From Myxococcota bacterium (GTDB lineage: Bacteria; Myxococcota_A; UBA9160; UBA4427): DNA of 64,000 nt. The stretch covers positions 4,480,001 through 4,544,000 of the forward strand of contig OZ252299.1 in assembly GCA_965250285.1 (NCBI GenBank), read 5' to 3'. The position numbers and the translations under genes are program-made. A model generated the notes under the pieces. The model was not told the origin of the DNA, did not search any database, and saw nothing but the letters and a program-made list of their open reading frames with translations. Below, piece after piece: positions 1 through 5,578 of the stretch (position 1 is the first letter of the stretch; each line of letters begins with the position of its first letter).

Positions 1-417
1 GGCGATCCAAGCCCGGCGCTCATGCCGCTTGCGCGGATCCTTCACGACCGCGGCCGATCGACGAGCACCACCCTGACGACCCCTCTCCTGCTCTTCGCGA
101 GCCGGGTGTTCAGCTGGAGCGGCGCGCACGAAACCGCTGCACGCGTGGCGCGCGAGGGCATCGCGTGGGTCGAACGCACGGGGGAGCACATGGTCTCGGC
201 CGAGCTGTACCGGCAGCTCGGCCACGCCCTCGATCGAGGCGCTGCGCCCGAGGAGGCCGCCGCGGCCAGGCGGCGCGGCATCGAGCTCGCGCGCCGGCAA
301 GGTCACGTCGTCAGCGAAGCCCGAGGCCTGCGCGATCGCCAGCGGGCCGGCGTCGCCACGCCGACCGAGCTGACCCGCCTGCTCGAGCTCGAAGAGACGC
401 CTCCGGCAGAGACGTAG
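1..417 (+). CDS. C-terminal end of a STAND/AAA-ATPase-TPR signalling protein (adenylate cyclase/kinase-associated type), 5' part outside window
   Basis: Frame open from base 1. SAELYRQLG...GIELARRQG resembles the AELxRLxG...ALExARRQG tail of predicted ATPase/cyclase proteins. Confidence 0.55.
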   Translation, partial: GDPSPALMPLARILHDRGRSTSTTLTTPLLLFASRVFSWSGAHETAARVAREGIAWVERTGEHMVSAELYRQLGHALDRGAAPEEAAAARRRGIELARRQGHVVSEARGLRDRQRAGVATPTELTRLLELEETPPAET

Positions 418-596
418 ACGCGGCTCGCCGGGGTCCTCGCAGCGGCCGCGCAGCAAGGCGGCACTTCGAGCGCCGAAACACACGAACTGAAGAAACGCTG
501 AACCTTCCGGGCGGAGCGAGCGCCCTTTGGGACGAGAAAGCGCGGCATGCTGTTTCGGCGCGGGAACGGGTGGCACCGATCCCCAGGAGACTCGAA

Positions 597-2480
597 ATGG
601 CGCCCAGCGAAGCAGATCCCACCACCCCGGCGACGGCCGACTCTCGCCCCGCGTGGGGACGGGTCGTCGGGCTCGTCGTGGCGATCTTCGGGTTCGTCTG
701 CGCCAGCCCCTCCGTCGCGCAGGAGATCGTGCGCGCGTCCCCCGATGTGACGATCCCCATTGGCGCCGCAGCCGTGGTCACGCGCGACGATCAGGTCGCC
801 GTCGACGACCGTCTCGGCGCCGTCACGGCCGACGTACTCGTCGGCATCCCCGAGACCGCGGCGATCGCGGCCTTCTCTCGCGTCGGCGCGTCGTACGCCG
901 TGGCCTTCGAGACGCAGACCCAGCTGCCGGGCGGGCTCATCGCCGACCCGGCCGACGTCGTCGTCTACGATGCGCTCAACGCGGCCTACAAGATCTTCTT
1001 CGACGGCTCGGGCCTGCCGCTCGGCACCCGGGTCGATGCGGTCTCGTTCGCCGGAAGCGCGCTGCTTCTGTCGTTCGGCGAGCGCACGAACCTGGGATTC
1101 ATCGTCGACGACGAAGACGTCGTTCGCTGGGACGGGAGCTTCTATACGCTCGCCTTCGATGGCTCGGCGGCGGGCCTCGATCCGGCCGTCGACACCGACG
1201 CGGTTCAGATGCTCGGACCGAATACACTGCTGTTGAGCTTCGACATCACGGGCGCGGTGGGCGGCATCGTGTTTCGCGATGAAGACGTGATGCGCTTCGA
1301 AGACGGTGTATGGAGCCTCGAGTACCAGGCGGCGGCCAGCGAGCCGAGCTGGATCGCGGCCGACCTCGACGCCATGACCGTGCCCGAGCCAACGACGGGG
1401 CCGCTCTTCGTGGCCGGCTTCGCTTCGCTCGCGGCAATGGCCGCGCGCAGACGGCGGCGCCGGGGCCCCGTTGCTGTGACGTGCACGCTGGCGATCGCGG
1501 CGCTGACCCTGGGCCCCGCCACAGGGGCCGGCGCGAGCGAGGGACGCCTCGAAATCAACCACACCTGCGCCACGCAGACGGGCTGCGGCGCGGGCGACAC
1601 GCCGGGCTATCCGGTCACGATCACGAGCGCGAGTCGGCGCAGCATCGTGCTGACGAGCAACCTCGTCGTACCCGACGCATCGACGACCGCCATCGACATT
1701 CTGGTCAGCGACGTCACGGTCGACCTCGCAGGCTTCTCGATCCTGCGCAGCGGCTGCGAAGGCGCGACGGCGAGCTGCACGGATACGTCGGCGAGCAACG
1801 CCGGCATCCGCGCCATCGGCTCTCCCAGTCCGAGCATCGAGCTGTACGGCTTCCGGGTGTACGGCGGCAGCGCCATCGGCTTCAGCGACGGGGTCGTGCT
1901 CGGGTACGCATCCGAGATTTCGAACGTGCGCGCACGTTGGAACCGCTTCTCGGGCATCGGAACGATCGGGTACGGCGGCCTGCTCTTCGACAACACGACG
2001 CTCGAGAACCCCGAGTTCGGCGTCACTACCGGAACGTTCGGGCCCAGTGTCGCGATCGGCAATCGAACCCATCAGAACGGTGTCGGCCTCATCGGGACTG
2101 GCAGTGCCCTGGTGCTGGCCGACAACGTCGGGTTCGAGAACAGCGTCGGCGGCTTTTCGACGAGCACGTCGACCAGCGTATTCGTGTCGAATACGAGCTA
2201 CGGCAATGCGGGCAACGGGCTCACCGTCTCGCCCGGCGAAGCCGCGATCTTCGAAGTGAATACGGTCTACGACAACACAGACGGGATCTTCGGTGGCGAC
2301 GGCACCCTCGCGCGGGGCAACGTGGCGCGGAACAACTCGGGCATTGGCATCCGACTCGGCCCGGACGGTGGCTATCGCGAGAACGTCCTGACGAACAACG
2401 CGGGGGGCCAAGTGAGCTCGGGGATCAACCTCGGCGACAACGCCTGCTCGGGGCCATCGGGGGTGGCGCCATGTCCGTGA
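597..2480 (+). CDS. Secreted two-module protein: signal peptide, repeat domain, internal PEP-CTERM motif, second signal peptide, right-handed beta-helix domain
   Basis: AGGAG RBS at 585-589 before ATG 597. VPEP at 1380-1391 followed by a TM segment and R6 (1446-1463), then a hydrophobic stretch ending AGA|S (1535/1536). Asn/Gly-rich beta-helix repeats follow. Confidence 0.8.
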   Translation: MAPSEADPTTPATADSRPAWGRVVGLVVAIFGFVCASPSVAQEIVRASPDVTIPIGAAAVVTRDDQVAVDDRLGAVTADVLVGIPETAAIAAFSRVGASYAVAFETQTQLPGGLIADPADVVVYDALNAAYKIFFDGSGLPLGTRVDAVSFAGSALLLSFGERTNLGFIVDDEDVVRWDGSFYTLAFDGSAAGLDPAVDTDAVQMLGPNTLLLSFDITGAVGGIVFRDEDVMRFEDGVWSLEYQAAASEPSWIAADLDAMTVPEPTTGPLFVAGFASLAAMAARRRRRRGPVAVTCTLAIAALTLGPATGAGASEGRLEINHTCATQTGCGAGDTPGYPVTITSASRRSIVLTSNLVVPDASTTAIDILVSDVTVDLAGFSILRSGCEGATASCTDTSASNAGIRAIGSPSPSIELYGFRVYGGSAIGFSDGVVLGYASEISNVRARWNRFSGIGTIGYGGLLFDNTTLENPEFGVTTGTFGPSVAIGNRTHQNGVGLIGTGSALVLADNVGFENSVGGFSTSTSTSVFVSNTSYGNAGNGLTVSPGEAAIFEVNTVYDNTDGIFGGDGTLARGNVARNNSGIGIRLGPDGGYRENVLTNNAGGQVSSGINLGDNACSGPSGVAPCP

Positions 2481-3529
2481 GCCATCTCGAAGCGGCTCCG
2501 CGCGCCCGTTCTCCGTTCGGCCGACGGGGCGGGTATCGCGCCGCTCTGCTCGCCTTCGCCCTCTTCATGGCGGGCAGCGATCGTGCCTTCGCGAGCGACG
2601 GATTGGTCGAGCTCGACCAGCTGTGTGCCGTTCATTCGGGCTGCATGGCGGGCGACACGCCGGGCTTCCCGATCACAATCACCGGCGCAGGGGGCCGCAG
2701 CTTCATCCTGACGACCAACCTCATCGTGCCGGGCGGCGGGACCAATGCGATCTCGATCGACGCAACCGACGTCTCGATCGATCTGAACGAGCACACGATT
2801 CTGCGTTCGGAGTGCGTCGGCGCCACGACCGACTGCAGCAGCACCGCGTTCGGTGCGATCGCGATCGTACAGACAGCGCCGGCGGCAGCCGCTGGCGGTG
2901 CGACCGTCCGAGATGGGCGGATCCTGGGTTTCGGGCAAGGCCTGCTTCTCGGTCGGGGTGCGGAGGTTCGCAACGTCGTCACGCGATGGATTCGCGGCGC
3001 CGGCATCTCTTCGCGCGGTCACGGCACGCTCCTATTCAGCAACACCGTGGATCAGTGCTTCGGGAGCCTGCTCGCGAACAGCATCGATCCGGGCGGGGTG
3101 GCGATCGGCAATCGCGTTTCGGGCGGTGCGAGCTTTGGCTTCGCGGTGAACCAACCGGGCATCGTCGTCGTCGACAACGTCGCGCTCGAGAACGGCGCGG
3201 TCGGGCTCTTGGCCAGTGAAAGCGCAGTGATGGTCGACAACGTCGCCCAGGGGAACACGACGTACGGCCTGACCGCCGACGAAGGCTCGGTCGTCATTCG
3301 AAACACCGCCCATGACAACGACCAGGGGGGCCTGTTCGTACAGGGCGGCTCTCTGGTCCGAGGCAACGTCGCACGCAGCAGCTCGATCGGCCCGGGCATC
3401 ACGGCAGCCGCACCGACGGGCCAGGGGCATCTGGAGAACGTCTCGAGCAACAACGCCGGCGGCGACGTCGTGGGCCCGCGCGTCGACCTGGGTGCCAATG
3501 CATGTGGCGGAACACCCGGGTGCCCCTGA
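2471..3529 (+). CDS. Secreted right-handed parallel beta-helix repeat protein (paralog 2)
   Basis: Start ATG 2471 or GTG 2477, overlapping the upstream stop. Signal peptide ends AFA|SDG. Shares the ELxQxCA...GC.xGDTPGFPITI N-cap and C-terminal LGxNAC motif with its neighbours. Confidence 0.8.
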   Translation: MSVSHLEAAPRARSPFGRRGGYRAALLAFALFMAGSDRAFASDGLVELDQLCAVHSGCMAGDTPGFPITITGAGGRSFILTTNLIVPGGGTNAISIDATDVSIDLNEHTILRSECVGATTDCSSTAFGAIAIVQTAPAAAAGGATVRDGRILGFGQGLLLGRGAEVRNVVTRWIRGAGISSRGHGTLLFSNTVDQCFGSLLANSIDPGGVAIGNRVSGGASFGFAVNQPGIVVVDNVALENGAVGLLASESAVMVDNVAQGNTTYGLTADEGSVVIRNTAHDNDQGGLFVQGGSLVRGNVARSSSIGPGITAAAPTGQGHLENVSSNNAGGDVVGPRVDLGANACGGTPGCP

Positions 3530-3647
3530 CACAGCGCCCACCCCGACGGAAAGGGGTCACGCCGATCCGCCGAACGAAACGACGCGCAGAAGCGAAGAGC
3601 AGCGAGACGAGACGCAGCGAAGAGCGTGCCCGAAGGAGAAGCCGAAG

Positions 3648-4655
3648 ATGACGCAGAACCGCACCCGACCCACCTCGCTCGCGGCGGCCCTGGCCGCCGC
3701 GAGCCTCGGCGTCGCACTGTACGCGCCGTCGGCGGCGGCGCTCGACGGTCGCTTCGAGCTGAATCAGCTGTGCGCGACCGTCACCGGCTGCATTCAGGGC
3801 GACACGCCCGGCTTTCCCATCACGCTGACGGTGGCGGCAACGGCTGGCTACGTCTTGACGAGCGAACTCGTCGTCCCCGACGCGAATACCTCGGCGATCG
3901 TGATCTCGGCGAACGACGTGCACATCGACCTGAACGGGTTTCGCATCGTTCGCAGCGGGTGCGAGAACGCCGTCGCCACGTGTGAAGCCGCGAGCGGATC
4001 GGGCGATGGCATCGGCGTCGACGACTTCTCGCTTCGACGCGGAACGAGCGTGACGAACGGCAACGTCGTCGGGATGGGCCGATACGGACTGCTCCTGGGC
4101 CCGCAGGCCCATGTGACGCACATTCAGGCGCGTTGGAATCGTCTCGAGGGCATCGCCGTGAACGAGAGCGGGCGCGTGCATCGCGTTCGCTCGATCGAGA
4201 ATGGAGGCGCGGGGATCTCGGTCGCCAGCGGCTCGACGGTGTCGGAAAGTGCAGCCGTCGGAAACGGCGGCGCCGGCATCTTCACCGCGACGGGATGCCA
4301 CGTCGTCCGCAACGTCGCCTGGGACAATGACGCTCAGGGCATCCGCAGTACGACCGGCTCGGTGATCCGACACAACGCCGTCGGCGACAACGGCAACATC
4401 GCGGGCATCCAGGCCGCCGCTTCCACCGTGGCGGGCAACGCCGTTGCGAACCAATCGGGCGGGCCGGGCATTCTCGCGACGACCGGCTCGATGGTCGAGT
4501 CGAATGCGATCACCGATACGGCCCTCGGCAGCGAAGGGCTCTCGCTCGGAGACGCGGGCTACCGTGGCAACGTGCTGACCGACAACCCCACTGGCCATGT
4601 CACGGGCGGAATCAACCTGGGCGCGAACGCCTGCGACGGAGTGCTCTGCCCCTAG
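3648..4655 (+). CDS. Secreted right-handed parallel beta-helix repeat protein (paralog 3)
   Basis: AAGGAG RBS at 3633-3638. Signal peptide ends AAA|LDG. ELNQLCATVTGCIQGDTPGFPITL, NxxxG repeats, ends INLGANACDGVLCP. Confidence 0.85.
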   Translation: MTQNRTRPTSLAAALAAASLGVALYAPSAAALDGRFELNQLCATVTGCIQGDTPGFPITLTVAATAGYVLTSELVVPDANTSAIVISANDVHIDLNGFRIVRSGCENAVATCEAASGSGDGIGVDDFSLRRGTSVTNGNVVGMGRYGLLLGPQAHVTHIQARWNRLEGIAVNESGRVHRVRSIENGGAGISVASGSTVSESAAVGNGGAGIFTATGCHVVRNVAWDNDAQGIRSTTGSVIRHNAVGDNGNIAGIQAAASTVAGNAVANQSGGPGILATTGSMVESNAITDTALGSEGLSLGDAGYRGNVLTDNPTGHVTGGINLGANACDGVLCP

Positions 4656-4705
4656 CGATCGGCGCCGTTCCGCGTCGAGTCCCGTGCCGCGGCGGCGCCC
4701 CGGCG

Positions 4706-5578
4706 CTAGTCCGCCTTCTCGAAGAGCAGCGTCGCCCGGTCGCTCTCGCCGATGGCGGTGTACTTGTCCTTGTCGACCTCGCCGAGCGCGAACGACGGCG
4801 GCAACGTCCAGACGCCGGCCTCGTGATCGGCCGGATCTTTCGGGTTGGCGTTGATCTCGCTCTGATCGACCAGGCGGAAGCCGTTCAGCTCCATGAGCGC
4901 GATGACGTCGGCCTCACGCAGATAGCCCTTGTTGCCGTCGGCATAGCTGTAGGGAGCATCGGGCTTTGCCCGGTGCTGCACGACGCCCACCATGCCGTCG
5001 TCCTTGAGCATGAGCCGCAGCGCCCGCAGCTCCTGATCGGCGATGTCCCAGCGGATCAGGTTGTGGAGCATGCGCGGGATCAGAATGCGGTCGACGGTGC
5101 CATTGGCCTCGTCGGGGATCGCGTTGCCGAAGTAGCCCGTCACGTTGTCGGCCGACACGCCCGACATGGCCTCGACACGGTCGGGGAACGTCTCGTCCCA
5201 CGTCTCGAGCGCCTTCTGAACCCGCTCGATCGGCGTGTCGTCGCCGGCGAACACCACGCCGATGTACTGGCCTTCGTCGGCCACGTACGGCGCCAGGATG
5301 CGCGTGTACCAGCCGCCGCCCGGTGCGTACTCGACGACCGTGTGCGTGGGCTGCACGTCGAAGAAGCGCAGCGTCTCGTTCGGGTGCCGGTAGGCGTCCC
5401 TCGCCCGGTCGTCGTCGCGGCGCTCGTGCGCGAGCACATCGTTGAGATGCTTGAAGTCTCCGCTCGCCGCGCGTTCGGGCCGCGGGGGCTCGGTCGTTTC
5501 GGTCGGCTTCGTCTCGAACAGGGCGCAGCCCATCGAGGTGGCCAGGGCAGCAACCAGGGTGAGCATGGCGAGTCGCAT
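4706..5578 (-). CDS. Class I SAM-dependent methyltransferase-like lipoprotein (COG4798 type)
   Basis: Lipobox SMGC. RDAYRHPNETLRFF, VVEYAPGGGWYT, SEINANPKD, VWTLPP and IGESDR motifs. Confidence 0.85.
   Translation of the reverse strand: MRLAMLTLVAALATSMGCALFETKPTETTEPPRPERAASGDFKHLNDVLAHERRDDDRARDAYRHPNETLRFFDVQPTHTVVEYAPGGGWYTRILAPYVADEGQYIGVVFAGDDTPIERVQKALETWDETFPDRVEAMSGVSADNVTGYFGNAIPDEANGTVDRILIPRMLHNLIRWDIADQELRALRLMLKDDGMVGVVQHRAKPDAPYSYADGNKGYLREADVIALMELNGFRLVDQSEINANPKDPADHEAGVWTLPPSFALGEVDKDKYTAIGESDRATLLFEKAD

Follow-up and report, generated by a model that had tools for sequence, protein, structure and literature searches.

Internal PEP-CTERM tag and second signal peptide as the probable joint of a two-part secreted precursor in a Myxococcota genome

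What does a PEP-CTERM sorting tag do when it lies in the middle of a protein? According to Haft et al. (2006, PMC1569441), the tag is defined as terminal, with a median tail of three residues, and the long-tailed cases were suggested to be possibly non-functional. One gene (P0001 below) in the stretch of DNA that we analysed, a window of 64,000 nucleotides from contig OZ252299.1 of a Myxococcota bacterium, has 339 residues after its TIGR02595 match, so its tag is not at the extreme C-terminus. The original prediction had read the gene as a secreted polyprotein, in which an internal PEP-CTERM anchor is fused to a second signal peptide and a second passenger. We believe that P0001 is probably such a precursor, and that signal peptidase and exosortase would cut it into two exported proteins.

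The reading frame is uninterrupted, as had been claimed, and each of the five parts could be located in the expected order in its 627-residue translation (Table 1). The predicted first signal peptide is present, with a hydrophobic segment at aa 18–37 followed by a conserved Ala41 (hydropathy, alignment); we refined the claim by placing its cleavage most likely after Ala41, at nucleotide 719. The segment made up of VPEP, a transmembrane helix and arginines is recognized as PEP-CTERM by the TIGR02595 model (aa 262–288, 23.4 bits against a cut-off of 16), while Pfam PF07589 gives 19.9, slightly below its cut-off of 20.7. P0001 resembles canonical PEP-CTERM substrates in its N-terminal signal peptide, PEP, hydrophobic helix and Arg cluster, in the many tagged copies per genome and in the presence of exosortases, but it differs from them in its tail of about 340 residues, which contains a second signal peptide. 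GC3 is 0.86–0.88 across all five parts, including the junction. When we scanned 380–4800 for promoters and terminators, the results were at chance level only. None of the sequencing runs listed as containing this stretch is RNA, which has no bearing on whether the gene is expressed.

Passenger B was said to align with two downstream paralogs, each with its own signal-like N-terminus, and it does: they match P0001 aa 287–622 (44% identity) and aa 287–619 (39%). At window positions 2471–2480 the likely ATG of the first paralog overlaps the last codons and the stop of P0001. Similar start/stop overlaps occur between B paralogs in related loci, so links between B genes seem to be coupled by overlap, whereas A and B are joined by fusion.

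Table 1. Parts of the fused gene and its two downstream paralogs, in positions of the window.
Feature	Positions	Strand	Evidence
Whole fused reading frame (P0001), 627 aa, no internal stop	597..2480	+	Translation; GGAG ribosome-binding site before ATG 597, -7.1 kcal/mol
Signal peptide 1 (predicted; cleavage after Ala41)	597..719	+	Hydrophobic peak at aa 18-27; Ala41 almost unchanged across 11 homologs
Passenger A, aa 42-261, predicted beta-propeller-like domain, acidic and built of repeats	720..1379	+	AF2 model; no Pfam match
Internal PEP-CTERM, aa 262-289 (VPEP, a short hydrophobic helix and a run of six Arg)	1380..1463	+	TIGR02595, 23.4 bits
Second signal-peptide-like segment (SP2), ends Ala-Gly-Ala	1464..1535	+	Matrix score 13.8; Ala313 invariant in 11 aligned proteins
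Passenger B, right-handed beta-helix, paired-looking Cys, aa 314-627 plus stop	1536..2480	+	PF13229, 33.2 bits
Stand-alone B paralog 1, own signal-like N-terminus; likely ATG overlaps the P0001 stop	2471..3529	+	Translation, alignment
Stand-alone B paralog 2, own signal-like N-terminus, GGAG site	3648..4655	+	Alignment; ATG 3648, -7.1 kcal/mol

The fusion is not an assembly slip, because contigs from two runs read through the junction without any change, and the layout recurs in ten full-length homologs. Logan contigs of run X1, which is possibly the source of the assembly, cover 300–4800 with 0 differences, and record 10 of run X2 crosses 864–1766 with 0 differences and 0 gaps (the two runs belong to one study, the comparison is of assembled contigs, and the listed X3 pieces stop short of the junction). 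The stretch at 1400–1540, where a lost stop or a frameshift had been considered, is identical in the X1 and X2 contigs.

A search with the whole protein found ten other clusters, at 34–64% identity and with 73–99% of the protein covered. The tag, the Arg run and the Ala before B, which is invariant, are kept in the alignment of these homologs, and the length of the linker varies. The tag is of the form PE(P/S) in nine of them and IPTL-type in one (P0011), at the same position; the C-terminal half of B differs in P0008. We also examined 76 loci from named genomes, 25 of which have domain A with a PEP-type tag. Thirteen of the 25 run in frame via SP2 into B and twelve stop, although the compared genomes are kin and counts across them are not independent. 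A separate B gene lies directly downstream of the terminal-tag A gene in three of the twelve loci, and also in genome G007. The fused loci are mostly from MAGs labelled Myxococcota or Deltaproteobacteria, with one Spirochaetaceae. It had been asked whether relatives have a stop after the Arg run, and the ten homologs and the thirteen named-genome loci all keep the fusion.

On a quick tree of domain A, P0001 falls within a six-row clade whose members are all fused (SH-aLRT 97). The fused state takes nine changes on this tree, and the supported branches force just two. Codon comparison of four close junctions found many non-synonymous changes, which suggests that constraint acts on the character of the linker and not on its sequence.

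Domain A has a confident AF2 model (pLDDT 94.2, pTM 0.89), and its best VIA-align match is the LRP4 propeller 3v65_B (Z 10.0, rmsd 4.5, 164 aligned), tied with many other propellers. It has no Pfam match, and the fold searches returned generic propeller matches only. Elsewhere, domain A is linked to assorted C-terminal modules. At eight loci (L155, L163, L165, L170, L180, L184, L192 and L207) it ends in or near a short acidic tail, IF-x-D/N-x-FE, which is not PEP-CTERM and is a candidate for a different sorting motif. In P0021, a membrane methyltransferase (MddA-like, below cut-off) is fused ahead of a signal-like segment that leads into domain A and a terminal PEP-CTERM, and this is possibly another internal-signal fusion. 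For passenger B, PF13229 matches aa 432–570 with 33.2 bits against a cut-off of 25.9, NosD gives 18.7, below its cut-off of 23.6, and the ESM Atlas returned beta-helix clusters at 0.95–0.96; a sequence search of the PDB found no relative. From the folds and the gene linkage, we infer that A and B may act jointly as surface binding or adhesion proteins.

The same layout is found elsewhere in the source genome (G000). There are 72 TIGR02595 matches over the cut-off, in a census where SP2 played no part in the selection; 66 end within 25 aa of the C-terminus, one at 43 aa and five at 263–747 aa. A pattern scan added two further internal tags, with 1,951 and 4,492 residues remaining. In all seven internal cases the Arg cluster is followed by a hydrophobic segment with a small-residue site and then by a second passenger, which puts the linker in six genes besides P0001. 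The second passengers are unrelated to each other (DUF4465, TSP3 repeats, Rhs/transglutaminase-like, FG-GAP and beta-helix). Of the ten long-tailed pattern matches, three (C1:2584209, 2842040 and 1125946) are probably not PEP-CTERM and were left out; one of these scored 12.1.

Some of these genes are unusual in themselves. L020 (C1:1404321-1410746) has a small YD-like domain with an internal PEP-CTERM, fused to a Rhs/transglutaminase-like protein of about 1,900 aa, and L021 (C1:456539-470737) has a small domain fused to an FG-GAP repeat protein of about 4,450 aa. The first domains of L018, L019 and L021 are about 150–170 aa long and appear by eye to be shared, with no Pfam match. Two other genes, at C1:171200 (+) and C1:903653 (-), have an internal IPTL-like tag and then a second signal-like segment.

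Related genomes also have internal PEP-CTERM tags followed by a signal-like segment and differing passengers, which the original prediction had proposed to look for. A junction search of 40 relatives found the layout in at least 10 genomes (70 loci examined of about 200 matches), and the total is 13 of 40 after a search based on DUF4465 was added. Among 14 DUF4465 genes found via that domain alone, nine are fused through a PEP-like tag, an Arg run and SP2, four are stand-alone with an ATG and a ribosome-binding site, and one is ambiguous. The nine (L016:1417-3024, which is G000 C1:2850916-2852523, and L219, L221-L225, L230 and L231) form a conserved two-unit fusion, found in 9 of the 14 genomes that have the domain, in which DUF4465 and a terminal PEP-CTERM come last. 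All six DUF4465 loci scanned have a cobalamin riboswitch, and the fusion gene likely gives two B12-related surface proteins. Two junctions, L073:1616 and L071:1582, end in a lipobox. Their second units, in which the internal PEP-CTERM is followed by a lipobox Cys, would be lipoproteins, and a lipobox at this place is sensible only as a processing signal.

A junction search across the phylum matched 15 of 151 genomes, all of the same order, with at most 45 candidates scored per genome. In a wider search of 1.84 billion representatives, a junction profile built from 19 sequences had 1,745 matches (E up to 0.001), and 134 of the best 149 of these (excluding P0001) have an internal PEP-CTERM. The profile contains SP2, so the rate of SP2 among its matches is circular and we used the set for breadth only. 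Up to nine internal sites, making chains of up to ten units, occur in a protein of 2,500 aa (Planctomycetales according to NCBI). The original prediction was right about the fusion as a polyprotein with an internal PEP-CTERM and a second signal, but it understated the scope, because the layout is a reusable linker and not a one-off.

SP2 looks like a real signal peptide. We scored it with a home-made matrix, for which 78 stand-alone B genes supplied the training set (the 20 residues that precede the mature start). The median was 16.5 for the 13 fused A–B loci, compared with 16.1 for the 78 stand-alone B signals (leave-one-out). All thirteen fused SP2s have Ala at -1, and the residue at -3 is small or Val in every one of them. 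SP2 of P0001 consists of the Arg run, a stretch with an 11-residue hydropathy of 2.27, and Ala-Gly-Ala, and scores 13.8. Scores of 10 or more were obtained by six of the seven internal cases in G000 (lowest 8.1), and among the controls by 2 of 68 terminal tags whose reading was continued beyond the stop and by 5.7% of 368 random ORF windows. The full-length AlphaFold model leaves the junction (aa 263–315) under pLDDT 50, so the helical hairpin that had been proposed for the two segments rests on the positive-inside rule.

Could B be made from a start of its own inside the fused gene? For the best ribosome-binding site ahead of a usable in-frame start, the median energy is -2.6 at 32 fused junctions, compared with -6.7 at 87 stand-alone B genes. 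Energies of -5 or stronger occur at 9 of the 32 junctions versus 69 of the 87 genes, and ten junctions have no usable in-frame start codon. In P0001 itself, an independent start at ATG 1437 had been named as one finding that would refute the polyprotein, and it is not supported because this codon has no ribosome-binding site (0 kcal/mol) and the Met is not conserved. GTG 1476 reaches -5.0, but the resulting signal would have no basic n-region. An internal start for B appears unlikely in most junctions. One locus (L146) is an exception in that GGAG and an ATG survive within its long junction, and in G000 two tandem duplicates (L017, C1:961096) are joined via a long spacer-like linker; both of these long junctions look like recent stages of read-through.

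The enzymes for the other cut are encoded in the genome. G000 has six exosortase-family genes (TIGR04178); two are over the TIGR02602 cut-off, one is XrtT and one is XrtH-like (TIGR04177, 79.6 against a cut-off of 86). All five relatives that we tested have such genes, four to seven each. An exact PEP is present in 11 of 13 A–B fusions and in 7 of 9 DUF4465 fusions, compared with 11 of 12 terminal A tags; the two fused sets, which were chosen independently of the junction profile, together have it in 18 of 22 junctions. TIGR02595 is passed by 7 of 13 internal tags and by 7 of 12 terminal A tags, and the medians of those that pass are 18.6 and 23.0. The polyprotein reading is least secure on the point of whether exosortase still cuts the internal tag.

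In the mechanism that we propose, signal peptide 1 would start Sec export of P0001 and would then be removed. Domain A would cross the inner membrane, and the PEP-CTERM helix and Arg run would stop the transfer. The Arg run would double as the n-region of SP2, which would restart export for domain B. Signal peptidase I would cleave after Ala313 and free the beta-helix, a cut that we consider very likely. Exosortase would treat the internal PEP like a terminal tag and process domain A, and we think that cleavage there is likely. After both cuts, a stub of two helices would be left in the membrane. The outcome would be two surface or periplasmic proteins per translation event, and we would expect an equal (1:1) yield of A and B. 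Such a linker likely arises by in-frame fusion of a PEP-CTERM gene with the secreted-protein gene that follows it, the spacer, the ribosome-binding site and the start codon being lost afterward. We also lean towards a more general view, in which PEP-CTERM, Arg run and SP2 would be a portable self-separating linker for building secreted polyproteins out of two to ten surface proteins unrelated to each other, and in which the housekeeping exosortase and signal peptidases would set the fate of each unit (exosortase-anchored, free or lipoprotein).

The polyprotein reading survives the comparative tests: the fusion is conserved, the halves are separate elsewhere, the SP2s score like stand-alone signals, most junctions have no internal start and exosortases are present. 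One alternative keeps most of this and supposes that signal peptidase alone cuts the junction. The PEP is degenerate in two of the 13 A–B fusions and two of the nine DUF4465 fusions, the HMM scores of internal tags are slightly lower, and exosortase might be obstructed by the second helix next to the tag. We nevertheless find this unlikely, as 18 of 22 junctions retain an exact PEP within a linker whose flanking sequence diverges and whose length varies, the share of tags over the TIGR02595 cut-off is about equal to that of terminal tags, and P0011 has a different exosortase-type tag at the same position. The junction might also never be cut, which would make P0001 a two-helix inner-membrane protein with two periplasmic domains. 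In its favour, cleavage at the junction is a prediction from sequence, and the 19-residue hydrophobicity of the second segment reaches about 1.6. Against it we count the invariant Ala at -1 and the small residue or Val at -3 that all 13 loci share with stand-alone signal peptides, the lipobox variants, the existence of each half as a complete separate gene and the chains that reach ten units. We regard an uncut junction as very improbable.

The same low probability goes to two overlapping in-frame genes, where B would come from an internal start and the A gene would merely have lost its stop. ATG 1437 would give a plausible signal peptide, the L146 junction has its GGAG and ATG, and sites at least as strong as -5 are found at nine of 32 junctions. 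However, ATG 1437 stands at 0 kcal/mol though the other starts of the cluster have ribosome-binding sites, the Met at its position is not conserved and a usable start codon is missing from ten of 32 junctions; the read-through product would in any case still be made and need handling. The last alternative is a faulty assembly, or a stop codon lost recently with no function behind the fusion, for which we see hardly any room and which for P0001 is largely refuted. The contigs of the two runs are identical base for base at the junction, the fused layout recurs in ten protein clusters and 13 named-genome loci, and the GC3 of the junction is of the coding type; these outweigh a GC content of 68.6% that favours long open frames by chance, the spacer-like linker between tandem duplicates at C1:961096, and the origin of the supporting runs in one study.

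Sorting signals inside proteins have been described before. An ArtA substrate of Haloferax volcanii has a central PGF signal and is cleaved, and its long second fragment made the cut detectable (PMC6098224, on Abdul Halim et al. 2017). The same review describes this substrate as a strain-specific fusion to a NifU domain and archaeosortase as a distant exosortase homolog, and states that exosortases had seen no experimental analysis as of 2018. P0001 is like the ArtA substrate in having a mid-protein sorting signal that came about through gene fusion and would be cut by an enzyme of the exosortase/archaeosortase family. It is unlike it in that the account in PMC6098224 mentions no second export signal, whereas the P0001 layout is conserved and modular and its second part is predicted to be exported. 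MXAN_5598 has an internal MYXO-CTERM, with an adhesin-like region on one side and a second envelope module on the other, and gene fusion and processing were proposed for it (PMC11980579). The likeness is an internal tripartite tag between two envelope modules; the differences are another tag, another protease family, a single example and no second signal peptide in the Discussion of that paper. P0001 has no Cys before the helix and lacks the invariant Cys motif of MYXO-CTERM, and TIGR03901 gives 20.6 for the 33-aa helix-to-Arg fragment and 14.4 in the A half, with a cut-off of 20.

There is also NF033207, midcut-by-XrtH, which we take to be a family with an exosortase-type signal inside the protein. 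P0001 shares the internal position of an exosortase-type signal with it, but its tag is PEP, and a search of P0001 with NF033207 gave no match at E up to 1. Weak junction matches were seen for P0011 (19.7) and for the two IPTL-like ORFs of G000 (genome best 21.4), with a cut-off of 45. In Bradyrhizobium, the FbcH cytochrome b-c1 precursor yields two proteins from one gene through an internal signal-peptidase site. FbcH belongs to a respiratory membrane complex, has no sorting tag and is not a reusable linker, whereas the P0001 junction has such a tag and is such a linker. Our literature search, which covered mainly open-access journals and main texts, returned no account of a PEP-CTERM-plus-second-signal linker or of multi-unit chains. 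A passage search of bioRxiv 2023.06.07.544157, PMC3237569, PMC12188702 and PMC7783341 returned no such layout either.

Internal sorting signals were previously known as single cases. We conclude that the layout of P0001 is genuine, conserved and widespread; it is a variant of exosortase sorting, and the protein likely functions as a secreted polyprotein. If this is true, it would overturn the working assumption under which PEP-CTERM proteins with long tails count as broken, and many proteins annotated as single would be precursors of several mature proteins. Natural mid-chain PEP tags would give an experimental handle on the exosortase cut site and on the order of the two cuts, as the central signal did for archaeosortase. 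If it works as we infer, the linker of about 45–55 residues could be a tool to export several proteins in a fixed ratio from one gene. For the bacteria that carry them, these fusions would be a counterpart of the secretory polyproteins of viruses and eukaryotes.
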